Source: a virus
Length of the DNA: 64,000 bases
Direction: 5' to 3' (one strand)
IMG/VR virus record: IMGVR_UViG_3300046804_002503
Span: 61,678 to 125,677 of that record
The translations under genes were made by a program, and so were the position numbers. Of this stretch, positions 1,837 to 43,200 are shown piece by piece. The notes under the pieces are model-generated. The model was not told the origin of the DNA and ran no database searches. It was given only the letters and a program-made list of their open reading frames with translations. Positions within the stretch are counted from its first letter, which is position 1, and each line of letters starts with the position of its first letter.

Positions 1837-2408
1837 TAAATTACTTTTGTGGTAGCTATGAAACAATCTTTTAAAATGTTTTCAAAGATAGCTTTAACGT
1901 CTTCTGCGAATGATTTTGTATCTGCTTCTGATAAAAATAAAGAAAATGCAAAGGAAGGTGCTTTAGGACCTGCTGAAATATTAATTCCTAAATGACCCAA
2001 AGCTACATTTTCTGAGACTTTGGTAATACTAACACTAGCTTTACCAAAGGTTTCCATACCACTCTTTTTTAACATTAAATCATCACCTCTTACCTCTACA
2101 TCATAAAGGCCGTATGTCTTTTTTCGTAGCAAATTTGCTATTTCCTGAACAAAAAGTCTTTGAAAAAATACTGCTCCGATTGGGTTCATGTTAGGAATTT
2201 CCCAACAAAAATTTAATGCATCATCTGAATAGATAAAATCATTATTAATTTTATCTTCTAGATCTATCAGATTGTCTGTCACATTCATTACACCTCTAGT
2301 AATATATAAAAATCCTAAAGGAGAATTGCCTATATCTTTGTGTACTAATTTATAGGCAAATCTTTGATGTATTAAAGAACCGTCATAATCTTCTTTTACG
2401 TAACTCAT
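1836..2408 (-). CDS. DUF366 family protein (biotin/lipoate-protein ligase-like fold)
   Basis: YDGSLI...G.MNV...LIDLED...IYSDDALNFCWE...QRL...RGDDL...KASVSI...HLGINI. Confidence 0.75.
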   Translation of the reverse strand: MSYVKEDYDGSLIHQRFAYKLVHKDIGNSPLGFLYITRGVMNVTDNLIDLEDKINNDFIYSDDALNFCWEIPNMNPIGAVFFQRLFVQEIANLLRKKTYGLYDVEVRGDDLMLKKSGMETFGKASVSITKVSENVALGHLGINISAGPKAPSFAFSLFLSEADTKSFAEDVKAIFENILKDCFIATTKVI

Positions 2409-2422
2409 ATGTTTATAATAAA

Positions 2423-3103: not shown

Positions 3104-4113
3104 ACAGAAGCTAATTGACTTTTAATCCATTGATAAGTGACTGCTAAACCTTCTACTAAAGGTTGTGTAGGTTTCCAATTTAATTTTTCAAAAATAAGCG
3201 TATTATCAGAATTTCTACCCCTTACACCGGTTGGTCCGGCTATATGTTTCTTGGTTAATTTTTTGCCTTCAAAATTACACGCCAGATCTACTAATTCATT
3301 AATTGAAACCATTTCATCTGAACCTATGTTAACTGGTTCAGAGAAATCCGATTCCATTAACCTTCTCACCCCTTCAATACATTCATCAATGTATAAAAAA
3401 GATCTAGTTTGTTTTCCATCACCCCAAATTTCAATTTCAGAAGAAGTAGGTGCACTTAATACTTTACGGCAAATAGCAGCCGGTGCTTTTTCTTTGCCGC
3501 CTTTCCAAGTGCCAAACGGTCCAAAGATGTTATGAAATCTTGCTATTCTAACATTTAATCCTTTATTACGTGCATAACTTAGATATAAACGTTCACTAAA
3601 TAATTTTTCCCAGCCATACTCACTGTCTGGTGCTGCAGGATATGCAGAAGATTCTTTGCAATTAGGATTAGATGGATCTTCTTGATTGTATGCTGGATAC
3701 ATGCAAGCACTGCTAGAATAAAATACCTTCTTAACATTGAATTTGACACTCAATTCTGCTACATTTAAATTAATAGTAGCAGAATTAGTCATTAAGTCTG
3801 CATCGTTTTCACCAGTAAAAATATATCCAGCTCCTCCCATATCTGCTGCTAACTGATATACTTCATCAAAAGCATTTTCTTTTTCTGATAAAGAATGTTG
3901 TTCTGGTGCTAAAAACAAAAGAGAAGTCTTTTCTCGATCACGTAAATCACAAATTACAAATTCATCTGCAGATGAATCACAAAATTCTGGATGTTTTAAA
4001 TCTGCTGCTCTAACCCAATAACCTTCTTGTTTTAAACGGTTAACTAAATGAGAACCGATAAAACCACCGGCTCCTAAAACTAAAGCTTTTTTTTGGTCTT
4101 TTTGATATTTCAT
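3100..4113 (-). CDS. NAD-dependent epimerase, GDP-mannose 3,5-epimerase-like
   Basis: GAGGFIG, QLAADMGGAGYI, SSACMYP, YGWEK, RFHNIFGP, GREK-like GKEKAPAA, GVRGRNSDN. Confidence 0.9.
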   Translation of the reverse strand: MKYQKDQKKALVLGAGGFIGSHLVNRLKQEGYWVRAADLKHPEFCDSSADEFVICDLRDREKTSLLFLAPEQHSLSEKENAFDEVYQLAADMGGAGYIFTGENDADLMTNSATINLNVAELSVKFNVKKVFYSSSACMYPAYNQEDPSNPNCKESSAYPAAPDSEYGWEKLFSERLYLSYARNKGLNVRIARFHNIFGPFGTWKGGKEKAPAAICRKVLSAPTSSEIEIWGDGKQTRSFLYIDECIEGVRRLMESDFSEPVNIGSDEMVSINELVDLACNFEGKKLTKKHIAGPTGVRGRNSDNTLIFEKLNWKPTQPLVEGLAVTYQWIKSQLASV

Positions 4114-4754
4114 ATAAAATAAGGATTTGTGTATTTAAAAGAGTCTTTGACTGTCAAGAAATTATCTTTTAATTCTAAAATTACTCCGTCTTCTTTTATT
4201 CTTTCTGCATTTTCAAATTCTGAAGAGCTAAAGCTGTCTTTTTCTACCCACAAAGAGCTTCCAGCTTTAACTACATAAAATTTCTTACCAGTAAAAACCC
4301 AACTAGTAAGCAATCCTTGCAGCTTGGAATATGTTTGAGATATATTATGGTTTTTTGTTAAAAGATAAGGAATAATAGATGAATCTACTTCAAATGAAGA
4401 GTGTTCTGGAAAAGATTTAAAGTTAGAAATAATACCATTATGAGCTACATAATACGAATCATTGTTAAATGGATGTGTGTGAGATTCTTTCCAGATAGTT
4501 TCTGTAGAATTGGTAGGTGCTCTTGAATGAAATGCAAAGTAAGAAAAATTACAAACATTATCTAAATCTTTAATTCTTTGTTTTAAAAGATTTAAATTAA
4601 AAATTCCTTTAGCTTTTTCTACTAAACTAATACATTCTTTATCTTCTTGAAAGGATAAAGCCATAAACCCAGATGAGTGAGACCCTCTTTTTAAATTTAA
4701 TTTGTAAAGAGTATATGCCTTCTCTAAATCTGAACTGCCTGCAATTCCACACAT
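4110..4754 (-). CDS. Stand-alone class II (Ntn) glutamine amidotransferase
   Basis: N-terminal MCGIAG, RG..SSG, HSRAPT, HPF, HNGII, DS motifs. Confidence 0.85.
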   Translation of the reverse strand: MCGIAGSSDLEKAYTLYKLNLKRGSHSSGFMALSFQEDKECISLVEKAKGIFNLNLLKQRIKDLDNVCNFSYFAFHSRAPTNSTETIWKESHTHPFNNDSYYVAHNGIISNFKSFPEHSSFEVDSSIIPYLLTKNHNISQTYSKLQGLLTSWVFTGKKFYVVKAGSSLWVEKDSFSSSEFENAERIKEDGVILELKDNFLTVKDSFKYTNPYFI

Positions 4755-4758
4755 ACAA

Positions 4759-5505
4759 TTATATTAATTCACAATTATATTTTTGCCAATCTATTTCTCT
4801 GGAGTATTTGATTGGATCTATTTTACCTGCTTGAATCCATCCAGCTATGCGGGCTGAACAAGAAGGGCATTCTCCACATGCTAAATCTGTACCATAACTA
4901 TTGTAACAAGTGTGTGTTTTTGAAAAATCTACACCTAATTCTAACCCATATTCTATGATTTGCTTTTTATCTAAGTCTATAAGAGGTGCTTCTATTTGAA
5001 TTAAATTTCTACGATTGAGGCTTAGGATTTGGTTTAATAAGCTTCTAAATTCTTGAGTACAATCCCAATAACCCGAAGTATCATCTGCTTTTGCTGCACC
5101 ATAAAAGATCGTATCTGCTTTTGCACTCTCTGCTAAAGATGCTGCTATTGATAAAAACATCATATTACGATTGGGTACATATGCTGATGTTTGAGGATCT
5201 CCTATAACATCTCTCATTTTTGGAACATCTAGGTCTAAATTGGTCAAAGAACTGTCTACTAGAGCTGCTCCGATTGACGTTAAATCTATAAATGTATGTT
5301 TAATTCTTTCTGAACCTGCTTGTTTGTTAAAATTCAAAGCATACTGCTGTGCTAATCTTAATTCTCTACCGTGTCTTTGGTTGTAATCAAAAGAAATTGC
5401 CTGAACTAACTCATATTTTTTCAAGGCATGATGTAAAACTACGGTACTATCCATACCTCCACTGTATAACACTAGACAAGACTTCGGAGAATTTTCCACA
5501 TTCAT
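4759..5505 (-). CDS. queC: 7-cyano-7-deazaguanine (preQ0) synthase
   Basis: SGGMDS PP-loop, FDYNQRH, YVPNRN, GYWDC, TCY...CGECPSC; start reassigned to MNVEN (5505) on promoter position and to avoid overlap with the divergent gene. Confidence 0.95.
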   Translation of the reverse strand: MNVENSPKSCLVLYSGGMDSTVVLHHALKKYELVQAISFDYNQRHGRELRLAQQYALNFNKQAGSERIKHTFIDLTSIGAALVDSSLTNLDLDVPKMRDVIGDPQTSAYVPNRNMMFLSIAASLAESAKADTIFYGAAKADDTSGYWDCTQEFRSLLNQILSLNRRNLIQIEAPLIDLDKKQIIEYGLELGVDFSKTHTCYNSYGTDLACGECPSCSARIAGWIQAGKIDPIKYSREIDWQKYNCELI

Positions 5506-5539
5506 ACGGTAAATATAGTATATTCTAATGAAAACTCTA
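5506..5539. promoter_or_regulatory. Back-to-back promoters for queC (-) and the 5528 ORF (+)
   Basis: Minus strand: TAGAGT-16-TATATT-6-ATG. Plus strand: TAGTAT-6-ATG, and TAAATA at 5510-5515. Confidence 0.5.
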
Positions 5540-6082
5540 GCTAAATCATCTAAAAAAAATATTGATTCATTAAATGAGGTGTCTCGTTTACTGAAAAACA
5601 TGCAAAGTAATGTTCAAGAAGAGGCTTCAACACCTTTTATTAAAAGTTTTCTTAAATGTTTGGTAAAAGAGGCAGATGAATTACCCCCTCAAGCACCGGA
5701 AGATTTTACACCAGAAAAAAATAAAGAGGATTTTGAAGGGGCTATGGAGCCGAGTACTCCAGAAGGTGAGTTTGATATTCAAGGTGTAGACCCACAAGCA
5801 CTGGCAGATGCTATTTCTTCTGTTCAAGAATGGTCAACTAAGCTAGATCAGTTTGTCCATTTCTTAAATGACCCTAAATCTCAATCTTTACATAAACTGT
5901 TAGCAGACTTTGACAGACCCGGTTCTTTAGTTAAAGGTATTACAAGAAAAACTTCTGATGGTATTACTCGTGTAGCTGGAGAAATTGCTAAATTGAAGCA
6001 AACTTTAGATGGATTTATTAATTTGGCTCCCAAGAAACAAAGAGATACAGAAGCTTTAGTGGCTACTGGTGCTGCTGGATAG
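5528..6082 (+). CDS. Hypothetical protein (possible virion/internal head protein)
   Basis: 184-aa ORF with acidic region and helical C-terminus; TAAATA upstream. Confidence 0.55.
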   Translation: MKTLAKSSKKNIDSLNEVSRLLKNMQSNVQEEASTPFIKSFLKCLVKEADELPPQAPEDFTPEKNKEDFEGAMEPSTPEGEFDIQGVDPQALADAISSVQEWSTKLDQFVHFLNDPKSQSLHKLLADFDRPGSLVKGITRKTSDGITRVAGEIAKLKQTLDGFINLAPKKQRDTEALVATGAAG

Positions 6083-8026: not shown

Positions 8027-8665
8027 TTATGGAGTCCATATGTCAGAAAGTAAACTTTCTTTCTCTCCATAAGCGTGTCCTAAATCTGTAATATATAAAT
8101 TTGTTAAAGCTATACGTTGTTCTGGTGTTCCAAAAATCTCTATAAAAGCAGGTGAATCTACTTTAGGAAAGATTCTACCATCTCCGTGAACATAAGATTG
8201 CATAAAGGCTTTAAAAATGTTGTCTATTTCTTCTCTGTAAATAGGATCCGTATCTCTTACACCATCTTCTACTAGATTAACCGGAGAGGCTTTAGTGATT
8301 GGTAAAAAGAAAATGATATCAAAAAGTTTTAAAGATTCTTTAACAATTAAACGACAGTTATCTAAAAATTTTTCAGACACTTTATCGTGAAGATGAAGCC
8401 AAGAAGAATACACTAAATTGTCTAATACACATCTATCAAAAATAATATTATCTGATTTTGAATATTGTGTGGCTTGATCTACTAAAAAGTCTAAAATAAT
8501 TTGTTGTGATTCTTCTGATCCTAATCGATTAATAGGAATATTTTTTTCTTTAATTAAGTCTCTATAAGTCTTTTCTGGAGTAGAATACATGCTCCATTTC
8601 TGGAGAAAGTCTTTTACATATGTGCTCTTACCAATACACTGTGTACCTACAACTGCTATTTTCAT
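8027..8665 (-). CDS. P-loop nucleoside/nucleotide kinase-like protein (AAA_28/NadR-type)
   Basis: GTQCIGKST Walker A, FDRCVLD, DGVRD. Confidence 0.75.
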   Translation of the reverse strand: MKIAVVGTQCIGKSTYVKDFLQKWSMYSTPEKTYRDLIKEKNIPINRLGSEESQQIILDFLVDQATQYSKSDNIIFDRCVLDNLVYSSWLHLHDKVSEKFLDNCRLIVKESLKLFDIIFFLPITKASPVNLVEDGVRDTDPIYREEIDNIFKAFMQSYVHGDGRIFPKVDSPAFIEIFGTPEQRIALTNLYITDLGHAYGEKESLLSDIWTP

Positions 8666-10191: not shown

Positions 10192-11556
10192 TTAACCTGT
10201 AATTTCTTTAATTACGTTTCCATAAACATCTGTGAGGCGAAAGGGTCTGCCGTTGTATGAATATGTGAGCTTAGTGTGATCAAATCCCATTAATTGGAGA
10301 ATGGTAGCATGTAAATCATGAACATGTACCTTATCTTTTTCAGCCTTGCCACCAGTTTCATCTGTTTCACCATATCTTTGACCACCTTTAACTCCACCAC
10401 CAGCCATCCAGACACTAAATGCTTTGCCATTGTGGTCTCTTCCCGGAGCACCTGCTGAACCTCCTGCTGTAACCGTACGACCAAATTCTCCACCCCAAAC
10501 AATTAACGTAGAGTCTAACAAGCCTCTTTGCTTGAGATCTGTAATAAGAGCCGCAATGGCTTGATCATGGGTCTTAGTAGTCCTGGGCATTGCTTCTTTA
10601 ATATTTTCGTGGTGATCATAACCACCAATGTTTACCTGAACAAAGCGCACTCCTCGCTCTACTAACCGTCTAGCAATTAACAAACGTGCTCCGTTTGGAT
10701 TGACGCCGTACATTTCTTTAATGTTTTCCGGTTCTTTGGTTAAATCAAAAACATCTGTTGCTTCTGTTTGCATTTTAAATGCAGTTTCAAACGCTTCTAT
10801 GCGTGCCTCAAATTGAGCATCACGCTGAACATTTTGCATGTGAATTTCGTTTATGGTCTTAGAAAAGTCTAATTGACGACGTTGACGGTCTAAGCCGGAA
10901 AATTGGCTTCTAATATTGTTAATTAATTGATCAGCCGTGGCTCCTGGGCGATAATCTACATTGCTGCCTTGGAACATGCCTGGTAAAAATGCACTTTGTC
11001 TCGATACCGAGGAGCCATTTAAGCTAATAAAACCAGGCATGTTTTGATTTACGGTTCCCAGACCATACACAATCCAACTACCTAAGCTAGGTTTAGGCAA
11101 TTGAGCACTTCCCGTGTGCATTACTTTAGCAGCAATGCCGTGATCAGGAATTTCTGCAAACATAGAATTAATAATTGCCATATGATCTGCATGTTTGCTT
11201 AATTCAGACCACACTTCTGAGATTTCTATTCCTGATTTACCACTTTTATTAAATTGAAATGGAGATGCTAGTAGTTCCCCGTGTTCCATTTTCTTGCCAT
11301 TATTTTTCTGAAGTTCTGGTTTATAGTCAAACGTATCAACACTAGAAGGTGCTCCACCTGCAAATAGATGAATGATAGACTTAGCTTTAACTGGAAAATG
11401 AGACTGTTTGGGAAGGGTAGGAGAAATAGCTTCTGCTGTATGGGGATTTATTCCATACAGAGAGGCCAATGCTAATCCTCCTATACCGCTTCCAAAGCTA
11501 GTTAAAAATTCTCTTCGAGTTGTTGGTTCAGAGGGGTGGTATCCACAATCTTTCAT
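10192..11556 (-). CDS. DUF1501 family protein with twin-arginine signal
   Basis: TRREFL Tat motif; AKSIIHLF..GAPS..DTFDYKP; ARRLVERGVRFVQ; LITDLKQRGLLDSTL..WGGEFGRT; GRDH; HDLHATIL..G.DH..LT. Confidence 0.92.
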   Translation of the reverse strand: MKDCGYHPSEPTTRREFLTSFGSGIGGLALASLYGINPHTAEAISPTLPKQSHFPVKAKSIIHLFAGGAPSSVDTFDYKPELQKNNGKKMEHGELLASPFQFNKSGKSGIEISEVWSELSKHADHMAIINSMFAEIPDHGIAAKVMHTGSAQLPKPSLGSWIVYGLGTVNQNMPGFISLNGSSVSRQSAFLPGMFQGSNVDYRPGATADQLINNIRSQFSGLDRQRRQLDFSKTINEIHMQNVQRDAQFEARIEAFETAFKMQTEATDVFDLTKEPENIKEMYGVNPNGARLLIARRLVERGVRFVQVNIGGYDHHENIKEAMPRTTKTHDQAIAALITDLKQRGLLDSTLIVWGGEFGRTVTAGGSAGAPGRDHNGKAFSVWMAGGGVKGGQRYGETDETGGKAEKDKVHVHDLHATILQLMGFDHTKLTYSYNGRPFRLTDVYGNVIKEITG

Positions 11557-29696: not shown

Positions 29697-30449
29697 ATGT
29701 CAGAAGAAAATTATCTATTAATAAGTGATGATGGTCCGGGATTTCATACAGTAGAGGGAGAGGGAGAGTATATTGGCCATCCAAGTGTATTTATGCGCTT
29801 GTTTGGTTGTAATTTAACCTGTAAAGGTTGGGCTTCTCCAGACTCTCCATGGGGATGTGATTCTTATATTTCATGGTCTAAGAAAAACAAATATACATTT
29901 GACGAAATGTTTAAGTTTTATGAAGAAAATGAATTACATCTTAAACTTAAAAGAGGAGACATCTGGAAGATTACAGGCGGAGAACCCATGTTAAGACAAG
30001 CACCTCTTCTTAAATTTGTAGAAGAATTTGATAAAAGATATGGTTTTATTCCACGTATAGATTTTGAAACCAACGGAACTATTATGCCAGATGAAAAATG
30101 GGTTAAAAAGTATCAAGCTACATTTACTGTATCACCCAAGATGTCTAGCAATGGAGATCCTAAAGAAAGACGCTATATTCCTTATGTATTAAAATGGCAC
30201 GTAGCTCAAAACTCTTGTTTTAAATTTGTAGTTAGAGGAGAAGAAGAAGTTCAAGAATTGTTTGTAGAATATATCAACAATGAAGGTATTAGAATACCCA
30301 AACATCGCATATGGTTAATGGTGATGGCGGGTTCAAGAGCAGAACATGTAGCAAATGCAGAAGCAGTGGCAGAGTTGTGTAAGTTATATGGATTTAAAAT
30401 GTCTCCTCGTTTGCATTTAATGGTTTGGGATAAAGCATTAAAGGTATAA
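29697..30449 (+). CDS. queE: 7-carboxy-7-deazaguanine synthase (radical SAM)
   Basis: TVEGEG..G.PSVF.RL.GCNLTC...CDS, TGGEP, ETNGT, SPK, KFVV, PRLH..W. Confidence 0.92.
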   Translation: MSEENYLLISDDGPGFHTVEGEGEYIGHPSVFMRLFGCNLTCKGWASPDSPWGCDSYISWSKKNKYTFDEMFKFYEENELHLKLKRGDIWKITGGEPMLRQAPLLKFVEEFDKRYGFIPRIDFETNGTIMPDEKWVKKYQATFTVSPKMSSNGDPKERRYIPYVLKWHVAQNSCFKFVVRGEEEVQELFVEYINNEGIRIPKHRIWLMVMAGSRAEHVANAEAVAELCKLYGFKMSPRLHLMVWDKALKV

Positions 30450-30484: not shown

Positions 30485-31807
30485 ATGGCTCTAAAACTTA
30501 AATCAAAATCTGAATCTAATTCTACAATAGATTTAAACAACAAGGTAGTTTATGAATATAAACCAGTTCAAGCAACTATACCTCATCCTCCAGTTGGAGC
30601 CCCCACATTAGGCAGACCAACCTATTCTTATATTGCTTCAACAGTGGTTAAAGCACCAGCACCTCCACCAGTTGAAATGCAAGAAACATCTTTACCGCGA
30701 GCTTTAAATTATTACGCTGATTATGGTGGTTGTGGATTTTGGCGTATGGTCTGGCCAGAGACTGCTGTAAATTCCTATCAAAAAGGTTGTATTTCTGGAT
30801 TAACTAGTATGGTTTTAGATTTAAGGTTTTATCAAAACCTTAAAAGCATACGCATGCAACGCCAAGCTACCCCGGTACAAGCAATGTTTATCAAAGAATT
30901 ACATAAACACAAAGATTCTTTGGGGTATCAATTAATTTATGAAATAGATGACATTGTATTCCGTAATGATATTCCAGACTACAATAGATGTAAGGAGTCT
31001 TTTGCATCAGAAGAAACTGAAAAAACTATTTTAGAAATTATGTCTTTAATGGATGAGATTACAGTTACTTGTCCGTACATGAAACAATACTACCAAGAAA
31101 AGACTGGTAACAAAAGAGTCACTATTATTCCAAATTATCCGCCAAAATATTGGTTAGGACGTTTTTATAACCGTCAACGTCTAATAGACAACTTTGAAAA
31201 GTATAAAAAGAAGCCGCGCATTTTATATGCTGGATCAGGAACACATATTGATGTTGCAAATAAAACAAATTTAAAAGATGATTTTGCTCATGTTGTAAAA
31301 GAAATTATTGCAGCTAGAAAAAAATTTAAATTTATTTGGAAAGGTACCTATCCGTTAGAAATTAAACCATTTATTGATAACGGAGAAATGGAATATATAG
31401 ACTGGTCTCCACTATACGACCTTCCGCAATCTGTATACGACTCAAATTGCAATGCGGTATATGCTCCTTTGCAAGACAATGTATTTAACAAATCTAAAAG
31501 CAATATTAAAATGGTAGAGGCTGGAGCTTTTGGCTATCCAGGAACCTTCCAAGATCTCTGCACATATGAGGGAGCTGATTTAAAATTTGGTAACGGATCA
31601 GAACTCATTGCTCAACTAGAACATATTACTTCAGATATAGATACCTATATGAAGTATTCAGACAATATTCATAAATTCACAAACGGCTTGTGGTTAGAAG
31701 ATCATTTAAATGAGTACGAAGCAGTGTATTTTACTAAATGGGGATCTAAAGAACGAAATTTAAAAAGTCCGGGCTTGATTTCCCTTAATTTAGACCAGAA
31801 AATATAG
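30485..31807 (+). CDS. GT-B (GT4-like) glycosyltransferase
   Basis: GCGFWRM.WP, QRQ, YEIDD, IPNY, GSGTH, APL.DN.FN.SKS.IK..E. Confidence 0.75.
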   Translation: MALKLKSKSESNSTIDLNNKVVYEYKPVQATIPHPPVGAPTLGRPTYSYIASTVVKAPAPPPVEMQETSLPRALNYYADYGGCGFWRMVWPETAVNSYQKGCISGLTSMVLDLRFYQNLKSIRMQRQATPVQAMFIKELHKHKDSLGYQLIYEIDDIVFRNDIPDYNRCKESFASEETEKTILEIMSLMDEITVTCPYMKQYYQEKTGNKRVTIIPNYPPKYWLGRFYNRQRLIDNFEKYKKKPRILYAGSGTHIDVANKTNLKDDFAHVVKEIIAARKKFKFIWKGTYPLEIKPFIDNGEMEYIDWSPLYDLPQSVYDSNCNAVYAPLQDNVFNKSKSNIKMVEAGAFGYPGTFQDLCTYEGADLKFGNGSELIAQLEHITSDIDTYMKYSDNIHKFTNGLWLEDHLNEYEAVYFTKWGSKERNLKSPGLISLNLDQKI

Positions 31808-31809: not shown

Positions 31810-34383
31810 ATGTATCGAAATGTCTTTTATGATTCTGCTAAACAATGTATACATTTATGGACTTGGGATGAAGCTGGCAGAAGAATTAAGCTAGAGTCTA
31901 GCTATGAGCCTTATCTTTTTGTAGAATCTGTTCACGGCACAGATGCTTTGAGTATTTTTAATACTCCTCTCAAAAAAATTAAATTTAAAAATCAATTTGA
32001 GAGAAATAAATTTGTAAATGAAACTCCAATAAAAAGATTGTTTCACAATTTAAGTTGTGAGCAAGAATTTTTATTGTCTTCATTTAAAGATGATATTCAA
32101 AAACCAGAGGCAGTAGCTAATCCTTTAAAAATATTCTTTTGGGATATTGAAACATATAGCCCAGGAGAGTTTCCAGACCCGGCTCAGGCTAAAGATACTA
32201 TTAACCTGATTACAGTTTATGATTCTTTGTCAGAAAAATACTACACATGGGGTCTAAAACCTTACAACAATAAAAATAAAGACGTAGTTTACTTTCATTG
32301 TAAAAGAGAAACAGAATTGCTAGGATCTTTTTTAAGTTTTTGGGAGTCAGACCCACCAGATATGATTGTTGGTTGGAATACAGAAGGGTTTGATATTCCT
32401 TATTTGATGAATAGGCTTAATAAATTGTTGGGAGAAGAAGAAAGATCAAGGCTTTCTCCAGTGAGAGCAATCTATTACAGAGAAAACGTCGCAATGAACA
32501 AGTTTGGTAAGATGATCAATCGCTGGTATATTCGTGGTGTTTCAAATATCGACTACATGGAAGTGTATGCTACATTTGCACGCGGTGATAGAGAGTCTTA
32601 TTCTCTAAATTTTATTGCAGAGTATGAATTGGGTGAAGGCAAAACAGATCTTCAAGGATGGAATTTATCTACAGTAGCTGATGAAGACTGGGACTTGTTT
32701 GTAGATTATAACATTCAAGATGTTAGACTCTTGGTAAAATTAGAAAATACACTCAAATATCTTAAACTTATTAGAGCTTTGTCTTACAAAGGCTTTATTC
32801 CATTTGAGCAATCTTTAGGTAAAGTGTCTATGATCACTGGTGCAGTAGCACATCAGGCCATATTACAAGGTTACAGGATACCTACGTTTAAAAATGATGG
32901 TCTAAGAGACGAGTATGTTGGTGGTTATGTTCATGAACCAGAAAAGAAATTGTGTAATTCAGTAGTAAGCTACGATGCAAACAGTCTATACCCAAACACA
33001 ATCATTACTTTAAACATATCACCAGAGACTAAGATAGGCAAAATCCTAGAAAATACAGAAGAAGAATACACAATCCGCTTGTCCAACAACAAAACAGTCA
33101 CACTTACCGCAGATAAATTTTCCAAGCTAGTAGAAAAAGAAAAATTATCAGTGTCAAAGTATAATGTTTTGTATACTCAAAAGTTTAAAGGCGTAGTACC
33201 CAACCTTATTGATAGAGTTTACAATGAGCGAGTTCAGATTAAATCAAAAATATCTGAGTTGATAGACATTTCTTCAAAGGTAACAGATGAAAATGAGAAA
33301 AAAATTATAGAAGCAGAGATATTAAATCTAGACACTCAGCAAAATGTTATTAAATTGGTACTCAACTCTATATATGGAGTATTTGCTCAGAAATATTCTC
33401 CACTATTTGACATTGATCATTCGGCTAGCATTACACTAACGGGTCAGGCAGTAGCAAAACAAGCGTCAGAATTGGTTTATCAGTATGCCTTGGGTAAAGG
33501 AGTTCAATGTGAAAAGGCTGATATATACAAATATGGTGATACAGACAGTGCATACTTCTCTATAGAACCAATTTTGAGGCATCAAAACATGCAGCTATTG
33601 GAAAATAATGAGATTACCTCGGGGGCACATCAGATCATTAAAGAAATTGACGTATATTTAAATAGAGAAATTGTAGAATGGGCTAAGAAAGAATTGAAAT
33701 CAATAGATGCTCGCTTTGTTTTCAAGCGAGAAACTATATGTGATGTGGCTTCTTTACAAGGTAAGAAGAGATACATCCTACATGTCATAGATCAAGAAGG
33801 CAAAAAACCCAAAAAACCTTTTAAATATGTCGGTGTAGAGGTTGCCAGATCATCTATTTCAGTACCAGTCAAGTCTTTAATCAAGAAAGTTATTGAATTG
33901 GCTATGTTGTCTCAAGATAAAAAGAAGGCAGACTCTCATTTTAGACAGGCTTATGAAGAATTTTGTAATATGCCTATTGAAGAAATCTCTTTGAGAAGCA
34001 AAATTTCAGATTACGAGAAGCAAGAATCAAAGGTAGATGAGTATGGAAGAATAGGTAAGGGAGCAACTCTGCACGGGAAGAGTGCTATTCATTATAATAA
34101 TCTGCTTAAAAAGTATAAACTTGACAACAAATACGAAACCATCACAAGTGGAATCAAGATCAAGTACTTTTATGCATCTAAAAACCCATTTGCATATAAG
34201 AGCATGGCATTTATAGACACCTATCCACCAGAATTAAAAGAAATTGTTGCAGCAGATTACCAAACCATGTTTGATAAGACAGTTCAACCCCCTCTGGAGA
34301 GGTTTTACGACTGCATCGGATGGCGCACACCACAGGTTGGTAAAGAAGTTCAGACAGATTTGTTTGATTTATTTGGGGTCTGA
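31810..34383 (+). CDS. gp43: Family B DNA polymerase (gp43)
   Basis: Exonuclease DIET, GWN..FDIPY, YNIQD; polymerase DANSLYP, K..LNSIYG, YGDTDS, KKRY. Confidence 0.96.
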   Translation: MYRNVFYDSAKQCIHLWTWDEAGRRIKLESSYEPYLFVESVHGTDALSIFNTPLKKIKFKNQFERNKFVNETPIKRLFHNLSCEQEFLLSSFKDDIQKPEAVANPLKIFFWDIETYSPGEFPDPAQAKDTINLITVYDSLSEKYYTWGLKPYNNKNKDVVYFHCKRETELLGSFLSFWESDPPDMIVGWNTEGFDIPYLMNRLNKLLGEEERSRLSPVRAIYYRENVAMNKFGKMINRWYIRGVSNIDYMEVYATFARGDRESYSLNFIAEYELGEGKTDLQGWNLSTVADEDWDLFVDYNIQDVRLLVKLENTLKYLKLIRALSYKGFIPFEQSLGKVSMITGAVAHQAILQGYRIPTFKNDGLRDEYVGGYVHEPEKKLCNSVVSYDANSLYPNTIITLNISPETKIGKILENTEEEYTIRLSNNKTVTLTADKFSKLVEKEKLSVSKYNVLYTQKFKGVVPNLIDRVYNERVQIKSKISELIDISSKVTDENEKKIIEAEILNLDTQQNVIKLVLNSIYGVFAQKYSPLFDIDHSASITLTGQAVAKQASELVYQYALGKGVQCEKADIYKYGDTDSAYFSIEPILRHQNMQLLENNEITSGAHQIIKEIDVYLNREIVEWAKKELKSIDARFVFKRETICDVASLQGKKRYILHVIDQEGKKPKKPFKYVGVEVARSSISVPVKSLIKKVIELAMLSQDKKKADSHFRQAYEEFCNMPIEEISLRSKISDYEKQESKVDEYGRIGKGATLHGKSAIHYNNLLKKYKLDNKYETITSGIKIKYFYASKNPFAYKSMAFIDTYPPELKEIVAADYQTMFDKTVQPPLERFYDCIGWRTPQVGKEVQTDLFDLFGV

Positions 34384-34402
34384 GTATAATATTTCTTAAA
34401 TT

Positions 34403-35314
34403 ATGTTAATAGCACACGAAGCACCACTATGTATCATGGACAAAGTCCAAGAAATTACTGATTATGACTATTGTTTAGTTCATCTCTTGGAAGAAAGTCC
34501 AGAATATCTTAAATTTTTTAAAGATGCTAAGCAAAAAGGCAGAAAGATAATGATGGACTGCAGCCTTTTTGAGTTGGGTAAAGCATTTGATGCACAAAAA
34601 TACTATGATTGGCTGTTAGAAATCCAACCAGATGAGTATATTGTACCAGATGTATGGCAAGATTGCGAAGCAAATACTAAAGCTTTCTCAAATTTTAAGT
34701 ATTCTTTTGATTTAGACAAGCTAAAAGGCAAGAAAATTGGAGTAGTTCAAGGCAAAACCTTGGAAGAAATGGAAGAATGCTATGTTTTTATGTCATCCTT
34801 TGCTGATAAAATTGCAATTAGCTTTGGTTATGACCTTTATTGGGAGTTATTTTCAGACACTTACAAGAAATTGCTGCATTTACCTTGGATTTTAGAAGAA
34901 TTTTGTAAAGTAGCAGATGTACATTCACTAGCTTTCAGGGCAGTAGAAACAGTAACTTTGAATTTTATCAAAAAATATGCTAAACCAGCAGCTCAAGCTG
35001 AGGGGCGAATGGCTCTTATTAACCATTTAATGAAGAATAATTTGATCAATACTGAGAAACCACATCATCTTTTGGGGTGTGGAATACCTATTGAATTTGG
35101 TGATTACGACAAACTTAAATACTTTTTTATAGAAAGTATAGACACTTCCCACCCAGTTATGACAGGGTATTATGGAGCTTCCTACGGTGACTACAAATAC
35201 ATGTGGAGCAAACTACACAGTAAAATGGTAGATGTTTTTTATGAAAATGTGTCGGAAGATCAGTGGGAAAAGATCAAATTTAACATAGAAGAGTTCAAAA
35301 AATTAGCTGTATAA
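34403..35314 (+). CDS. TGT/DpdA-like TIM-barrel protein (putative deazaguanine transglycosylase)
   Basis: MMDCS.FELG, IVPD, GVVQG, HHLLG, SIDTS.P match the order of TGT motifs (DSGG, D, GIVQG, HLLG, catalytic D); the preQ0 pathway is in the same window. Confidence 0.7.
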   Translation: MLIAHEAPLCIMDKVQEITDYDYCLVHLLEESPEYLKFFKDAKQKGRKIMMDCSLFELGKAFDAQKYYDWLLEIQPDEYIVPDVWQDCEANTKAFSNFKYSFDLDKLKGKKIGVVQGKTLEEMEECYVFMSSFADKIAISFGYDLYWELFSDTYKKLLHLPWILEEFCKVADVHSLAFRAVETVTLNFIKKYAKPAAQAEGRMALINHLMKNNLINTEKPHHLLGCGIPIEFGDYDKLKYFFIESIDTSHPVMTGYYGASYGDYKYMWSKLHSKMVDVFYENVSEDQWEKIKFNIEEFKKLAV

Positions 35315-36046
35315 ATGAAAACACAAATCATAGCCCTCACCCAACCTTTAATTAGAACCCGAGACAACACTCGTTTCTTGGATCCAGAAGAGTTTATTGT
35401 ATATTGTGCTCGAGTCTCTAATCCTACCAATCAACTCAACACTGCCACTTCTTCTAAGTTGTTGAAGTATTGTATTGAGCACGAGCACTGGTCTATCTTT
35501 GAACAAGTGTCTATGACAGCCGAAATAGTCACCAGTAGGGACATATCTGCCCAAATTATCAGGCATCGAAGCTTTTCTTTTCAAGAATTTAGCCAACGAT
35601 ACAGTGAAGTAGTCTCTTTAGAACCGTTTAACATTCGAAAACAAGCTGATAAAAATCGTCAATCTAGTGTAGAATTGTTAGATTTGTCTGAAGAAGAAGT
35701 CAAATTGATTACAAATCACATTACAAGCAGCATGGAACTTTATAAAACCCTTATAGAAAGGGGAGCAGCTCGAGAAAGTGCTCGTAAAGTTTTACCTCTG
35801 TGCGCTGAAACAACAATCTACATGACTGGTTCAGTGAGATCATGGATTCATTATCTGAGTATTAGATGCAAAGAAGACACTCAACTAGAACATCGTCTAA
35901 TAGCAGATAATATTAAACAAAGTTTTATAGAAATTTTTCCTTCAATTAGCGAAGCTTTGGGTTGGCAATCTACTCCGTTGCCGGATCAAGAAGAGCCTTC
36001 CAAAGAACCTCAAACTTTAGAATCAACTGAAAAGAATATTGATTAA
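35315..36046 (+). CDS. thyX: Flavin-dependent thymidylate synthase
   Basis: ARVS, HWSIFE, RHRSFSFQEFSQRY, E.AR.VLP, RSWIHY..R, TQ.EHR. Confidence 0.95.
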   Translation: MKTQIIALTQPLIRTRDNTRFLDPEEFIVYCARVSNPTNQLNTATSSKLLKYCIEHEHWSIFEQVSMTAEIVTSRDISAQIIRHRSFSFQEFSQRYSEVVSLEPFNIRKQADKNRQSSVELLDLSEEEVKLITNHITSSMELYKTLIERGAARESARKVLPLCAETTIYMTGSVRSWIHYLSIRCKEDTQLEHRLIADNIKQSFIEIFPSISEALGWQSTPLPDQEEPSKEPQTLESTEKNID

Positions 36047-36488: not shown

Positions 36489-37622
36489 ATGGCTTCTAAA
36501 AAAAATCATCCAGCAGATGTTTTAGCTGCTTTTAAAGTTTTAGAAGATCTAAATCCAGATGCCACCTTTTTAAATGAAAGTGCTCTGTCTAACATTAGTT
36601 CTTTTATAGACACTGGTTGTATGGCTCTTAACGCCATCATTAGTGGTTCTTTGCACAAAGGCATTCCAAGTGGTAGGATTACTGGATTCAGTGGTCCTAC
36701 TTCCTGTGGTAAGACTTATATCATTAACAGAATTTTAGCTAATGCTCAAAAAGAAGGGCGTTATGTTGTTATCTTTGATACAGAAAATGCAGTTGATGAT
36801 CGAGGCGCTACCAACATGGGTATGGATACTACTAAAGTAAAGTATTGTCCAGTAGAAACTGTAGAACAATGTCGTAATCAAATCAGCCAATTCTTAGATT
36901 CTGTTATAGAAAAAAAGCTTAAAAGTCAATTTATTATTTCTATTGATTCTTTAGGTAATTTAGTTTCTACAAAAGAAATGAATGATGTGGCTCAAGGCAA
37001 AGAAGCTGCTGATATGGGATCTAGAGCCAAAGGGCTCAAGAGTATGCTTCGAGTTTTGACTCATAAAGCTGCAAAAGCTGATGTTCCTATTCTGTTCTCC
37101 AATCACGTATATGATAACCCGGCTGCTATGTTTCCAAGTTTGGTTAAACAACAATCTGGAGGTTCTGGCCCCCTTTATATGTCTTCTGTTTTAGTACAGA
37201 TGGCAGTAAAGAATGAAAAGACCTCAGGCGGTAACACTGGTAGTAGAGATGCAGTAGAAGATACAACTCCTTTGTCTAAAGACATTAATGGAGTTACTCT
37301 TCGAGCTTTAACTACAAAAAATCGAGTAGTACCTCCATACATGGAAACTGAAATGTATCTCAACTTTAAATCGGGTTTAGCAAAATATTCTGGCTTACTT
37401 GATATGGCTGTTGGTTATGGAGTAGTAATTCAAAGTGGAGCTACGTTTGCTCTTGCTGACGGTACTAAATTGGGCTATTATAAAAGCTGGAGACAAGACG
37501 AAGAAGTTTGGAATAAAATTCTACCACAATTAGAAATTAAACTTCAAACAGAGCTGCAATACAAAAAAGAAAATTCTCCAGCAGCTAAAGAACCTGAAGA
37601 AGATGACGACGATGAAGAGTAA
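36489..37622 (+). CDS. uvsX: RecA-like recombinase UvsX
   Basis: DTG..ALN..ISG, GPTSCGKT, FDTE, IDSLG, DMG.RAK, NHVY, SGG, KNR. Confidence 0.93.
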   Translation: MASKKNHPADVLAAFKVLEDLNPDATFLNESALSNISSFIDTGCMALNAIISGSLHKGIPSGRITGFSGPTSCGKTYIINRILANAQKEGRYVVIFDTENAVDDRGATNMGMDTTKVKYCPVETVEQCRNQISQFLDSVIEKKLKSQFIISIDSLGNLVSTKEMNDVAQGKEAADMGSRAKGLKSMLRVLTHKAAKADVPILFSNHVYDNPAAMFPSLVKQQSGGSGPLYMSSVLVQMAVKNEKTSGGNTGSRDAVEDTTPLSKDINGVTLRALTTKNRVVPPYMETEMYLNFKSGLAKYSGLLDMAVGYGVVIQSGATFALADGTKLGYYKSWRQDEEVWNKILPQLEIKLQTELQYKKENSPAAKEPEEDDDDEE

Positions 37623-38079
37623 TATTACAACATTTCAATCTACCAAGATGATAGAGTTAGGTAGCTGTGCATTTCGACAATGGACAGCTTCTTTTTCTCA
37701 TTGTCGATTTATTCATGGTTACCAGCTTAAAGCCAAATTTTGGTTTGAAGCTAAGGAATTAGATGAACGTAATTGGGTAGTAGACTTTGGCAGTTTAAAA
37801 GAGTTAGAAAAGATTTTAAAGAATCAATTTGATCATACTCTTTGTATTGCTAAAGACGATCCCTTGTTGCCTTCTTTTAAACAATTACATGATGAAGGTG
37901 GTTGTGATTTGAGAATTATGGACGGAGTTGGTATTGAAAAAACCGCAGAGTGGTGCTTCAAGAGAGCTCAAGAACATATTCAAGAAATCACGTATGGTCG
38001 TTGTTGGGTCACTCAGGTAGAGGTTTGGGAACATGAAAGAAACTCAGCAGTATATAGAGAAGAAAGATCTATCTACTAA
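37603..38079 (+). CDS. queD: 6-carboxy-5,6,7,8-tetrahydropterin synthase
   Basis: HCRFIHGY, WVVDFG, FDHT, E..AE, VWEHERNSA. Confidence 0.9.
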   Translation: MTTMKSNITTFQSTKMIELGSCAFRQWTASFSHCRFIHGYQLKAKFWFEAKELDERNWVVDFGSLKELEKILKNQFDHTLCIAKDDPLLPSFKQLHDEGGCDLRIMDGVGIEKTAEWCFKRAQEHIQEITYGRCWVTQVEVWEHERNSAVYREERSIY

Positions 38080-39563: not shown

Positions 39564-40460
39564 ATGGTTTGCTATCAAGTATACACCCACAAAGATTTAG
39601 ACGGAGCAGTTAGTTTGCTGACCCTTTTGTGGGCTTTACCCAATGATCATATTAGATGGAAAGCATATAACAATCTAGAAATTGATAGCATTAAATCAGA
39701 CCTAGATGAGGTTAATTCACCGTGTCCTACATTTATTTTAGATCTTTCTTTGAGAAAGGAATTTGTAGAGAATTTAGACCTAGAACATATCACTTTTATT
39801 GATCATCACGAGTCGTCAGAACCTCTTTTAAATCAATTTAAAAAAGCAAAAATAATTTACGAGAACACTACCTCTAATGCTTTGTTAATGGCTAAAAAGT
39901 ATTCCACGGCAAATGGATATCCGGCTCGTACTACGGCTCAAAAGACACTTGTAGCCCTAGCAGATGATTTTGATTGTTATAGACTACAAATTCCTGAATC
40001 ATATGATTTAAACATTTTATTTTGGTCTGAATATAAAAATAATTTTACCAAATTTATTAAAGACTATCAGGATGGATTTAAAGGATTTACACCTGAACAA
40101 AAGAAAGCGATAGCTTTTATTAAAAATTCTGCGTATGAACAATCTAAAAAAATTAATTTATTTTCAGGCAATGTTCAATTTGGTTCTAAGTCTAAAAGAG
40201 TTCTAGCGGCTATGGGTGATACCTTCTCTAATTTATGTGCAGACTATCTAATTAAAGATCACAAACCAGACATTTTTATTTTCATTAATTTGAAGTCTGA
40301 AAAGGTTTATATTAGACAACACACTAAAGAAGATCCAATTAATGTAGGCACCTTTGCTGAAAAGATTTGTGAAGGTGGAGGTCACAAACACGCCGGTGGT
40401 GGGGTAATTACTCCATTATTTTTAGAAATAACTAAAAATCTTGTTCCTATAAGTGTATGA
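39564..40460 (+). CDS. DHH/DHHA1 phosphoesterase
   Basis: THKDLDG, LDL, IDHH, DDFD, GGGHKHAGG. Confidence 0.85.
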   Translation: MVCYQVYTHKDLDGAVSLLTLLWALPNDHIRWKAYNNLEIDSIKSDLDEVNSPCPTFILDLSLRKEFVENLDLEHITFIDHHESSEPLLNQFKKAKIIYENTTSNALLMAKKYSTANGYPARTTAQKTLVALADDFDCYRLQIPESYDLNILFWSEYKNNFTKFIKDYQDGFKGFTPEQKKAIAFIKNSAYEQSKKINLFSGNVQFGSKSKRVLAAMGDTFSNLCADYLIKDHKPDIFIFINLKSEKVYIRQHTKEDPINVGTFAEKICEGGGHKHAGGGVITPLFLEITKNLVPISV

Positions 40461-41435: not shown

Positions 41436-42302
41436 ATGAAATATTCAACCTCACTATTTAATTCAATCAAAGACGCTTTGGCCAAGAAGAGCAATTCTTC
41501 AGATGGAAATTTCAAAGATTTCCTCAAGCTAGAGATTGGAAAGACCTATTTGGTCCGTCTCATTCCGAACCTTGCACATCCAGAAAGAACTATCTTCCAC
41601 TATTATCATCACCTTTGGAATAGCACAGTTACACAAGAATTAGTTTCAGTTCTTTGTCCTGCTACAGTTAAGGAAAGGTGCCCCATTGATGAGTATCGTT
41701 CCAAGATTTACAAAACCAACGATAAAGCAGAGATCGAAAAGATTAAACCCATTAAACGCAATGAAAATTGGTTAGTCAATGTATTTGTAATCAAAGATCC
41801 AACCAATCCAGATAATCAAGGCCAAACCAAAATTCTTCGTTATGGTAAGCAATTGGACAAGATTATCACTTCAGCAATGGAGGGCGATGATGCAGAAGAC
41901 TTTGGTGCAAAGATTTTTGACTTGTCAGAAAACGGATGCAATTTGCGTATTAAAGTAGAAGAAAATGAAGGCGGATATCCAACTTATGTTGCATCAAGAT
42001 TCTTGACACCTTCAGCTTTAGAAGGAGATCCAGATCAAGATGAGATTTACAATTCAGTTAAATCATTGGATACCATTTTTGAATTGAAACCTTATGATGA
42101 AATTCAAAAGTTGTTGAATGTTCACTTCTTGGGTAAGACAGAAGAAGTAGCATCTAGACCAGCTGCTAAGCAAGCTTCTAAGCCTGAACCAGAAGAAGAT
42201 GAATATGAATCTTATTCAACTCCTCAATCTAAACAAACAGAGACAGTAGAAGAAGAAAGTCCTATTGACGATCGCATCCATGATATTCTCAAAGATCTGT
42301 AA
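41436..42302 (+). CDS. gp32: Single-stranded DNA-binding protein (gp32-like)
   Basis: VRLIP, H, CP....CPI, VNV.VI.DP.NPDN.G..KILRYG, FD...G.N..IK, Y..S.F, acidic tail. Confidence 0.88.
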   Translation: MKYSTSLFNSIKDALAKKSNSSDGNFKDFLKLEIGKTYLVRLIPNLAHPERTIFHYYHHLWNSTVTQELVSVLCPATVKERCPIDEYRSKIYKTNDKAEIEKIKPIKRNENWLVNVFVIKDPTNPDNQGQTKILRYGKQLDKIITSAMEGDDAEDFGAKIFDLSENGCNLRIKVEENEGGYPTYVASRFLTPSALEGDPDQDEIYNSVKSLDTIFELKPYDEIQKLLNVHFLGKTEEVASRPAAKQASKPEPEEDEYESYSTPQSKQTETVEEESPIDDRIHDILKDL

Positions 42303-42308
42303 TTTTAT

Positions 42309-42336
42309 TAGCAATCTAAAAAACTTACTCTATAAT
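42309..42336 (+). promoter_or_regulatory. Putative promoter for folE2
   Basis: TAGCAA-16-TATAAT. Confidence 0.45.
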
Positions 42337-42357
42337 AAAAACCAACCATCAAATAAT

Positions 42358-43200
42358 ATGCCTAGAATCAAAACCAACGCAGACATTCCTGATATCCAAA
42401 ATACACTTGACGGCTTTCCTAAAAAGTACATTCCCAAGGTAGGATCACGCAACATTGTTGTTCCTATGGAGATCATTCGTAAAGATGGATCTATCAATCC
42501 TACTAAAGCTATCATCAGTATGTACACGGATCTTACTCCAGAGGTTAAGGGTACAAACATGAGTCGCTATCGTATTTTGGTAGAAGAAGTCTTAGCCAAC
42601 AAGACTCATCGTATTGATGAGGTTATGGACATTCTTCTAGATGAATGCAAGGAACGCCTCAAGAGTCAAAATGCTTATATCAAAATTAAGTTTGACTATT
42701 TCTTGAAGAAAGAAGCACCTGTATCTAAAGTTGTTTCACACATGGATTATCAAGGATCTTTTGAAGGTCGTTTGGTAAACGGTGAGAAGAAGTTTTACCT
42801 ACACGCCAATGTGTTGTATGCTTCTTTGTGTCCTTGCTCCAAAGAGATCTCGGATTACGGAGCTCATAACCAACAGTCTTATGCTGATGTAACAGTACAG
42901 CTGTCCAAGACAGGAGTAGACTCAGATGTTTATTGGTTTGAAGAATTGGTTCAAGCAGTGGAAAAGAGTTCTTCTGCACCAATTGTCAATGCTCTCAAGC
43001 GAGTAGATGAAGCATATCAAACCGAATTGATGTATGAAAACCCAGTCTTCGTTGAAGACATGGTACGTAAAGTAGCAGTTGAGCTAGATAAAGACTTAGA
43101 TGGTCGCATTAAAGATTATCTTGTAATTGTTAACCATTACGAATCTATTCACAGTTCTATTGCAGTAAGTGTAATTAATGCAGGAAGAGAATTAAAATAA
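42358..43200 (+). CDS. folE2: GTP cyclohydrolase I type B
   Basis: PDIQ, KGTNMSR, LCPCSKEIS..GAHNQ, KRVDE, ENP.FVEDMVR, ESIH; start placed at MPRIK after the promoter. Confidence 0.93.
   Translation: MPRIKTNADIPDIQNTLDGFPKKYIPKVGSRNIVVPMEIIRKDGSINPTKAIISMYTDLTPEVKGTNMSRYRILVEEVLANKTHRIDEVMDILLDECKERLKSQNAYIKIKFDYFLKKEAPVSKVVSHMDYQGSFEGRLVNGEKKFYLHANVLYASLCPCSKEISDYGAHNQQSYADVTVQLSKTGVDSDVYWFEELVQAVEKSSSAPIVNALKRVDEAYQTELMYENPVFVEDMVRKVAVELDKDLDGRIKDYLVIVNHYESIHSSIAVSVINAGRELK

Follow-up and report, generated by a model that had tools for sequence, protein, structure and literature searches.

The 64,000-nucleotide stretch analysed here (the window) covers positions 61,678 to 125,677 of IMG/VR virus record IMGVR_UViG_3300046804_002503, a record of 125,677 bases estimated to be 58% complete. 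An initial annotation of the window had placed a divergent enzyme, akin to tRNA-guanine transglycosylases (TGTs) and DpdA proteins, between a DNA polymerase gene and thyX. The open reading frame (ORF) is real and both neighbours are in place: 19 nt separate the stop codon of the polymerase gene, which we take to be of family B from the motifs DANSLYPN and YGDTDS in its translation, from the ATG of the ORF, whose 3′ end abuts thyX at position 35315. The start had been set too far upstream, at 34364, which is the first base of a TTGATT hexamer; the ORF actually begins at 34403 (Table 1). Its product almost certainly belongs to the DpdA3 family, and our data support a predicted role as the insertion enzyme of a phage 7-deazaguanine system, a TGT/DpdA-like TIM barrel lacking the Zn motif.

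The family assignment came from tblastn searches of 50,697 annotated phage records, of which 19 matched. Four, at 40.5% identity and 91% coverage (E 1e-53), were records of Flavobacterium phage immuto, whose annotation of the gene reads 'DNA guanine transglycosylase (7-deazapurine in DNA), DpdA'. Another 14 belonged to the Campylobacter CP220 group (~36% identity, 92% coverage, E ~1e-40), annotated as hypothetical, and the remaining one was a partial match in a Weizmannia phage. DpdA3 was defined by Hutinet et al. (2023; PMC10516641) as CGPG_00065 of phage phiST, its Campylobacter homologs and the immuto protein, the family having been detected by HHpred comparison of CGPG_00065 with PF01702 (98.83%). 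We place our protein in DpdA3 because of its homology to the immuto and CP220-group proteins named there; phiST itself was not recovered by tblastn at E <= 1e-3, and the link to it rests on the published definition. The earlier 'divergent TGT/DpdA-like' reading thus holds, not for a new subfamily but for DpdA3, which the initial annotation had already cited. Complete replacement of G is reported in CP220 (dADG), phiST (dDG) and immuto (formyl-dPreQ1), and insertion after replication has been proposed for DpdA3 (PMC10516641).

The family is large and poorly covered by domain databases. The protein matched phrog_19058 in PHROGs ('unknown function', E 1.1e-46) and no family in Pfam (E <= 1) or NCBIfam, PF01702 and PF20314 being among those unmatched. 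At E <= 1e-3, 1023 of 1515 candidate clusters belonged to the family. We also found 1311 representatives at 50% identity and at least 596 IMG/VR contigs, and none of the 120 family clusters listed had a precomputed Pfam domain. Some members have composite architectures, namely a DpdA3 fusion to Formyl_trans_N (P0203) and DpdA3 with GIY-YIG/NUMOD homing-endonuclease modules (P0265 and P0123). The isoelectric point (pI), tried as a proxy for DNA binding, was uninformative: the median pI of DpdA3 is 5.5, with 96% of members below 7, and DpdA1, which acts on DNA, is equally acidic.

To describe conservation we fetched 268 proteins, kept the 255 relatives with a length of 240-330 aa and aligned them to the query with MAFFT. 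All four motifs singled out in the initial annotation are present, MMDCS at residues 50-54, VVQG at 114-117, HHLLG at 221-225 and SIDTS at 245-249, and they amount to far more than chance. D52, D83, H222, L224, G225 and D247 are identical in all 256 sequences; the two aspartates originally picked as catalytic (D52 and D247) are therefore invariant. Position 116 is Q in 237/256 and H in 18/256, and G117 is kept in 252/256. The C-terminal Zn site of tRNA TGTs has the form CxCxxC...H. As had been claimed for the query, CxCxxC is missing from it, and we found none in any of the 256 aligned sequences.

An AlphaFold2 model built from a 52-sequence alignment was of high confidence (predicted local distance difference test, pLDDT, 94.6; predicted template-modelling score, pTM, 0.91) and comprises eight strand/helix units, consistent with a TGT-type (β/α)8 barrel. 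In a Foldseek search of the PDB, all of the top 50 matches were tRNA-guanine transglycosylases (E 3e-6 to 2.5e-5, TMq 0.44-0.56, 9-13% identity). VIA-align, a search independent of Foldseek run against 48,161 chains, gave the same answer: archaeosine TGT 1iq8 (Z 16.2, 231 residues aligned) and the DNA preQ0 insertase DpdA of Salmonella Montevideo, 7ui4 (Z 16.2, 228 aligned, root-mean-square deviation 3.1), were followed by bacterial TGT 3unt (Z 15.1) and QTRT2 (Z 14.7), with generic TIM barrels at Z 13.7 or less. A fold unlike that of TGTs had been named in advance as the outcome that would speak against the initial annotation, and both searches put TGT/DpdA first.

The invariant residues of the model lie at strand ends in an order reminiscent of bacterial DpdA. 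D52 closes strand 49-52, D83 lies past 78-80, Q116-G117 past 110-115 and S140-F141 past 136-140; H222-L-L-G225 sits on 221-224, and D247-T248 closes 243-247. In the DpdA structure, Asp95 is the general acid/base, Asp256 the nucleophile, Asp130 and His181 contact the base edge, Phe99 and Leu236 form a stacking pair, and a Gly-rich loop lies past strand 6; the spacing D52-x3-F56 equals that of Asp95-x3-Phe99 (PMC10164549). By residue order, D83 would correspond to Asp130 and Q116-G117 to His181-Gly182. In tRNA TGTs, a Gln occupies the base-edge position. The alternation of Q and H at position 116 would thus recall both that Gln and His181 of DpdA.

Comparison with phage DpdA1/2 points to the same two aspartates. 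An alignment of nine annotated DpdA1/2 proteins (from phages 9g, CAjan, CA8, BcepGomr, Erebus, ZHS, Bipper, Dp-1 and phiFN37) contains only two invariant Asp, D72 and D215. The single stretch aligned by hhalign, in an overall non-significant match, pairs D52 with D72 of phage 9g DpdA1. When 17 DpdA3 and 21 DpdA1/2 sequences were merged, all three MAFFT modes (L-INS-i, E-INS-i and G-INS-i) paired D52 with D72, H222 with H196, G225 with G199, D247 with D215 and T248 with S216; like the two Asp, H196 and G199 are invariant in DpdA1/2. D52 and D247 are thus the putative general acid/base and nucleophile Asp of the TGT/DpdA superfamily. Taken together, homology to DpdA3, two fold searches and invariant Asp co-aligned with DpdA1/2 support the insertion-enzyme reading put forward initially.

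To see in what company DpdA3 is found, we took the best 80 IMG/VR loci with flanks of up to 10 kb, called ORFs greedily and labelled them with hidden Markov models (HMMs) whose seeds came from the window and annotated phages. A DpdA3 ORF was called in 78 of the 80, and counts below are for any position, within three genes, and adjacent. QueF (60, 46 and 1 loci), a formyltransferase (58, 55 and 46) and an AAA_28 kinase-like gene (49, 44 and 2) were the most frequent companions, followed at any position by QueE (41), QueD (39), FolE (39), a phosphoribosyltransferase (PRT, 29) and a glutamine amidotransferase (GATase, 20). PolB (20, 14 and 12), MazG-like of the PRA-PH type (16, 15 and 0) and ThyX (9, 8 and 8) were labelled as well. 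The common gene order is PRT-FolE-x-MazG-x-[DpdA3]-formyltransferase-kinase-QueF-x-QueC-x-GATase.

Loci L014-L023 have a different order, QueE-x-PolB-[DpdA3]-ThyX-x-x-QueD, which is that of the window. In a quick maximum-likelihood tree of 81 rows, rooted at the midpoint, the window belongs to a 12-row clade whose members all have the PolB/ThyX context (Shimodaira-Hasegawa-like approximate likelihood ratio test, SH-aLRT, 100), and the opposite side of the tree holds the other 69 rows, including immuto, CP220 and the cassette loci. All cases of an adjacent ThyX belong to the window's clade. This PolB-linked clade of DpdA3, from uncultured T4-like phages, is previously uncharacterised, separate and well supported. 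The proteins of the clade can carry about 39 extra residues, helical in the model, inserted after strand 6: the segment 143-201 has a length of 58 residues in the query versus a modal 19 in the family, and reaches at least 50 residues in 7/256 sequences. In the model, the region forms helices 153-157, 161-171 and 178-211 (pLDDT 83-96). The insertion adjoins the loop that contacts the 7-substituent in TGTs, and may alter the specificity for the base or for the acceptor.

By its predicted gene content, the window encodes the whole route from GTP to preQ0, with FolE2, QueD, QueE, QueC and a GATase-like protein whose translation begins MCGIAG, the last two being a split form of Gat-QueC (Table 1). 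FolE type I is absent from the record (0 matches), its role being filled by FolE2. Nowhere in the record did the category HMMs find QueF, a formyltransferase, a MazG-like gene or a PRT, and a six-frame search with PF01702 found no TGT there. In QueD the Cys of the CxxxHG motif is retained (HCRFIHGY), so the protein is not of the DpdL type described in PMC10516641. Four larger relatives within the clade (60, 82, 100 and 42% complete) gave a similar picture, with FolE2 in 4/4, QueC in 3/4, and both QueF and PF01702 TGT in 0/4. Since the complete genome among them, of 227 kb, has the preQ0 route but no TGT, DpdA3 is the sole TGT-fold candidate there.

This gene content also bears on the base that is made. 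With no QueF, no formyltransferase and no DpdL-type QueD, the base would stay at the level of preQ0, its 7-amido derivative (ADG) or G+. The GATase and QueC pair coexists with QueF in 20/78 DpdA3 loci and, because QueF needs preQ0, this suggests that the two proteins together form a glutamine-dependent synthase of preQ0, and not of G+. QueC similarity was also considered as a guide to the base made and proved uninformative, the best phage matches being KVP40-like Vibrio phages at 37-40%.

Table 1. Features of the window discussed in the text. Positions are those of the window, except for the second AAA_28 paralog, which lies elsewhere in the same record.
Feature	Coordinates	Strand	Basis
DpdA3-family 7-deazaguanine transglycosylase gene (predicted)	34403..35314	+	303 aa, ATG start
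DNA polymerase gene, 857 aa, directly 5′ of DpdA3	31810..34383	+	ORF translation
ThyX gene, directly 3′ of DpdA3	35315..36046	+	Pfam Thy1 E 3e-46
D52 codon (MMDCS), proposed general acid/base	34556..34558	+	256/256
D83 codon (VPDV), candidate base-recognition Asp	34649..34651	+	256/256; just past strand 78-80
Q116-G117 codons (VVQG), candidate counterpart of DpdA His181-Gly182	34748..34753	+	residue order
H222-L223-L224-G225 codons (HHLLG)	35066..35077	+	H222, L224, G225 in 256/256
D247-T248 codons (SIDTS), proposed covalent nucleophile Asp	35141..35146	+	D247 in 256/256
Clade-specific helical insertion, ~39 residues, after strand 6	approx. 34850..34972	+	alignment and model
FolE2-type GTP cyclohydrolase I, step 1	42265..43200	+	Pfam GCHY-1 E 4.8e-65
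QueD-like 6-carboxytetrahydropterin synthase, step 2	37603..38079	+	Pfam PTPS 1.2e-19; PHROG 2389 1.3e-37
QueE-like radical-SAM CDG synthase, step 3	29697..30449	+	PHROG 2076 3e-49; NCBIfam QueE below cut-offs
QueC, step 4	4759..5601	-	Pfam QueC 5.6e-59
Class-II glutamine amidotransferase-like gene adjoining queC	4110..4754	-	PHROG 18128/4736; GATase_6 weak, E 0.0013
AAA_28 P-loop nucleoside/nucleotide-kinase-like gene	8027..8665	-	Pfam AAA_28 7.9e-13
Second AAA_28 paralog, outside the window	G000:C1:49865-50398	-	same record
TTGATT-N17-TAATAT promoter-like motif	34364..34392	+	sequence; hexamers 34364-34369 and 34387-34392
TTGATT-N16-17-TAnnnT motifs	7056-7084	-	sequence
TTGATT-N16-17-TAnnnT motifs	27848-27875, 34364-34392, 36039-36066, 38112-38139	+	sequence

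Some neighbours of the pathway genes encode sugar-related enzymes. QueC and the GATase belong to a co-oriented run on the minus strand (1836..5601) with an NAD-dependent sugar epimerase (Pfam Epimerase 4.8e-41), a Glyco_tranf_2_5-like glycosyltransferase and a DUF366 protein (9.9e-21), which may point to further sugar decoration of the deazaguanine. Between queE and the polymerase gene lies a glycosyltransferase-like ORF of 440 aa (30485..31807, +; PHROG 7162, 2e-23); in most loci of the clade, this slot holds an unlabelled ORF (L014, L015, L019 and L022, with two in L021). A small Pribosyltran-domain gene, the PRT of the census, precedes FolE in 29/78 DpdA3 loci (L025-L092) versus 0/76 DpdA1/2 loci; it is not discussed in the main text of PMC10516641.

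The census brought out a kinase-like family that travels with DpdA3, an association that is new here. The kinase-like protein of the window, CP220 gp057 and the product of immuto gene 68 all match Pfam AAA_28 (E ~1e-12 to 1e-13) with pairwise identities of 22-35%, and the alignment retains the Walker A motif, an invariant DR pair and a DGxR lid. As a control we examined 76 loci around DpdA1/2 genes, which contained FolE (67), QueE (60) and QueD (53) but no kinase, MazG-like, PRT, QueF or formyltransferase gene (0 each). The difference between 49/78 and 0/76 for the kinase is suggestive, the control loci coming mostly from ~60-kb phages and the loci being related, with counts that are not independent. 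Among annotated phages, the kinase family is a rare one that occurs in 110-111 of 50,697 records (89 Streptomyces, 17 Campylobacter, 4 Flavobacterium and 1 Rhodococcus) and is present in 18/18 of those with full-length DpdA3. There is also one natural fusion, P0250, with AAA_28 at residues 1-167 followed by DpdA3. DpdA3 is flanked by the kinase and an HD+AAA_33 protein in CP220, and by the kinase and a PRA-PH hydrolase in immuto.

Two kinase paralogs are found in the window's record, in 3/4 of the clade relatives and in Campylobacter phages. In the window's clade the kinase lies ~26 kb from DpdA3, one paralog being ~2.5-3 kb from queC (here and in relatives G001-G003). A quick kinase tree, whose long branches were not resolved, did not single out the paralog matching the DpdA3-adjacent kinase, and complex prediction for the window kinase with DpdA3 (score 0.00 in two runs made without controls) spoke neither for nor against an interaction. 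The words 'kinase' and 'phosphoribosyltransferase' are absent from the main text of Hutinet et al. (PMC10516641), and we found neither the kinase-DpdA3 association nor a nucleotide-level proposal in the literature searched, supplements not being covered in either case. The 89 Streptomyces phage genomes (~130 kb, e.g. H105-H139) carry the same kinase family usually beside a methyltransferase and gave no DpdA3 match in tblastn; their kinase may serve another nucleotide modification.

On balance, the substrate of DpdA3 is probably guanine in replicated phage DNA, modified by base exchange. The compact (β/α)8 barrel, without a Zn subdomain, would catalyse a double displacement like that of TGT and bacterial DpdA. 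D247 would attack C1′ to give a covalent ribosyl-enzyme intermediate, with departure of guanine; D52 would act first as general acid and afterwards as general base, and D83 and Q116 would read the edge of guanine or 7-deazaguanine. The free 7-deazaguanine base, supplied by the phage route from FolE2 through QueD and QueE to QueC (with the GATase), would then attack the covalent intermediate. The outcome would be heavy or complete replacement of G in phage DNA, blocking restriction. We favour DNA because to our knowledge every characterised base-exchanging TGT or DpdA acts on a polynucleotide, because insertion into DNA has been proposed for this family, and because the pathway yields a free base.

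A number of observations weigh against this proposal, several of them concerning the relationship to TGTs itself. Neither phmmer nor a 52-sequence profile found a TGT among PDB sequences. When 52 relatives were compared with Pfam at E <= 10, PF01702 was matched by 2/52 (best E 0.074) and DUF6610 (PF20314, DpdA4) by 1/52 (E 0.048), other matches being noise-like, including one to a neurotoxin translocation domain (E 3.8e-4). Against a nine-sequence DpdA1/2 profile, hhalign gave a probability of 4.5%, or 6.0% with a 256-sequence query profile, and nothing in global mode with the latter. Homology to DpdA3 is clear from tblastn, while in the profile comparisons, suggested as a check from the outset, PF01702, DpdA1/2 and PF20314 stay below threshold with these shallow profiles. 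In tblastn, phage 9g DpdA matched 233 records, with no Flavobacterium or Campylobacter among the matches listed, and E. coli Tgt matched 20 records, all bona fide tgt genes and no phage DpdA. D83 and Q116 are unpaired with DpdA1/2 in the merged alignments, and TGTs lead generic TIM barrels by a modest distance (Z 16.2 vs 13.7; Foldseek TM 0.44-0.56). Moreover, tests of DpdA3 in E. coli were unsuccessful and, according to the main text of PMC10516641, no DpdA3 activity has been demonstrated so far. The phage is uncultured and known here from its genes, from which the modification of its DNA is inferred.

These same points, with generic TIM barrels close below TGTs, profiles that do not reach TGTs significantly and the lack of a demonstrated activity, would suit a TIM-barrel enzyme of another chemistry (a glycosidase, an N-ribosyl hydrolase or a base-tailoring step) that is TGT-like in fold alone. 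We nonetheless consider this very unlikely, given that both fold searches rank the TGT superfamily alone at the top, that the invariant Asp, His and Gly residues align with those of DpdA1/2, that nearly all of the 78 loci show linkage to FolE/QueD/QueE/QueC/QueF genes, and that the complete relative genome holds no other transglycosylase candidate. A transglycosylase directed at phage or host tRNAs, in the manner of queuosine or archaeosine synthesis, has in its favour that tRNA TGTs are among the closest folds and that large phages often carry tRNAs. It is hardly probable, however, for an enzyme whose family has the Zn motif in 0/256 members and which has 303 aa, the TGT/DpdA chains that it matched having 373-577 residues. 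The genes of a full de novo pathway are interspersed among those of replication, which fits a role in DNA, and the phages of the characterised relatives have fully G-replaced DNA (PMC10516641).

A difficulty for a DNA substrate in particular is how tightly a nucleotide-kinase-like gene is linked to the family, together with our own reasoning that 100% replacement would be hard to reach by exchange after replication. Both would be accounted for if, as the initial annotation had raised as a possibility along with an adapted polymerase, DpdA3 exchanged the base of dGMP, dG or another free guanine nucleotide before replication, the kinase phosphorylating the product and PolB incorporating 7-deaza-dGTP. 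Besides the linkage, fusion and paralogs described above and the motifs of the kinase alignment, this possibility draws on the PRA-PH/MazG-like gene within three genes of DpdA3 in 15/78 loci and the PRT in 29/78, both 0/76 in the control, and on the PRA-PH and HD+AAA_33 neighbours in immuto and CP220. The ADG nucleoside has been seen in the cytoplasm of CP220-infected cells, and phiST has a dUTPase/MazG-like gene beside DpdA3 (PMC10516641). On the other side stand the polynucleotide substrates of the characterised enzymes and the situation in the window's own clade, where the kinase is near queC and far from DpdA3. Enzymes that could remove dGTP were looked for: the record, at 58% completeness, gave 0 matches for MazG, PRA-PH, MazG-like, dUTPase_2 and HD genes, and the four clade relatives lack MazG, PRA-PH, dUTPase_2 and HD genes (MazG-like was not searched there). 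The control is also unmatched for genome type. We therefore regard as possible, though rather unlikely, a pre-replicative 7-deaza-dGTP pathway formed by DpdA3 and one or both AAA_28 kinases, which would make DpdA3 the first TGT-fold enzyme to act on a free guanine nucleotide or nucleoside; if so, the neighbouring nucleoside triphosphate pyrophosphohydrolase and PRT would join the pathway in other clades.

Base exchange in DNA by a DpdA3 enzyme, the reading we favour, can be set against the known systems. The window protein shares with the DpdA3 proteins of Hutinet et al. (2023) a size class of ~260-300 aa, the D / D / Q-G / H-x-x-G / D-T-S series without a Zn motif, and the presence of 7-deazaguanine synthesis genes and an AAA_28 kinase-like gene in the same genome. 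It differs from immuto and CP220 by its PolB-DpdA3-ThyX context without an adjacent formyltransferase-kinase-QueF cassette, by FolE2 instead of FolE type I, by the lack of QueF and by its ~39-residue insertion. Bacterial DpdA has the Asp-x3-Phe motif and the later nucleophile Asp in the same strand order (PMC10164549), but is only 12% identical and gives no significant profile match, DpdA3 being ~110 residues shorter; the bacterial enzyme, partnered by DpdB, modifies less than 0.1% of G (PMC10516641). Phage DpdA1/2 (e.g. 9g gp03, CAjan and Dp-1) are similar in size (266-357 aa), have no invariant Cys cluster, and carry motifs F-LDSGAFSA / HGFG / S-DSSSW that parallel IMMDCSLFELG / HHLLG / SIDTS of DpdA3. 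Their reported replacement levels, unlike those of DpdA3 phages, are 0.1-30% (DpdA1) and below 0.1% (DpdA2) (PMC10516641). With tRNA TGTs (PF01702), DpdA3 shares the predicted (β/α)8 fold, but it has neither a PF01702 match nor CxCxxC and, given its length, no extra tRNA-binding domains.

The initial annotation had also given the gene its own promoter. The TTGATT and TAATAT hexamers are indeed present, the pair matching the sigma-70 consensus at 8/12 positions, and a perfect TATAAT occurs at 34385-34390 with a spacer of 15 nt from TTGATT. A promoter scan of 33900-35600 did not list the pair, and its 7 sites compare with 5.9 +/- 2.4 in shuffled sequences; over the whole window, TTGATT-N15-18-TANNNT has 10 matches versus 13.5 +/- 3.6 expected, that is, no enrichment, and its counts are at chance level. 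Five of the 10 matches stop 6-10 nt before ORFs of the replication module (7049 on the minus strand, 27882, 34403, 36073 and 38146). The motif of the DpdA3 gene ends 10 nt ahead of the start codon, and those of the primase-like, SbcC/gp46-like, 36073 and helicase-like genes precede the starts by exactly 6 nt. The motif could be a phage early/middle promoter giving very short leaders, and a promoter of its own for the DpdA3 gene is plausible from these positions.

Two further genes of the window stand apart from the pathway. In the replication module, an ORF of 298 aa (39564..40460, +) has sub-threshold DHH and DHHA1 matches (E 1.6e-3 and 3.8e-5) and is possibly a nucleotide or oligonucleotide phosphoesterase. 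At 10192..11556 (-) lies a gene with a strong DUF1501 match (Pfam E 4.5e-135), here in a phage genome.

Among DpdA subfamilies, DpdA3 alone has been linked to phage DNA in which guanine is completely replaced, a modification against which most restriction enzymes and some CRISPR nucleases fail. The window widens this family, and predicts a genome substituted at the preQ0/ADG level, possibly in full. The value of the finding lies in the biochemistry of DpdA3, whose function is predicted, and in its association with a kinase, which provides a testable handle on whether guanine is replaced before or after replication. Were it before, the pathway would in addition offer a way to make 7-deaza-dGTP enzymatically.

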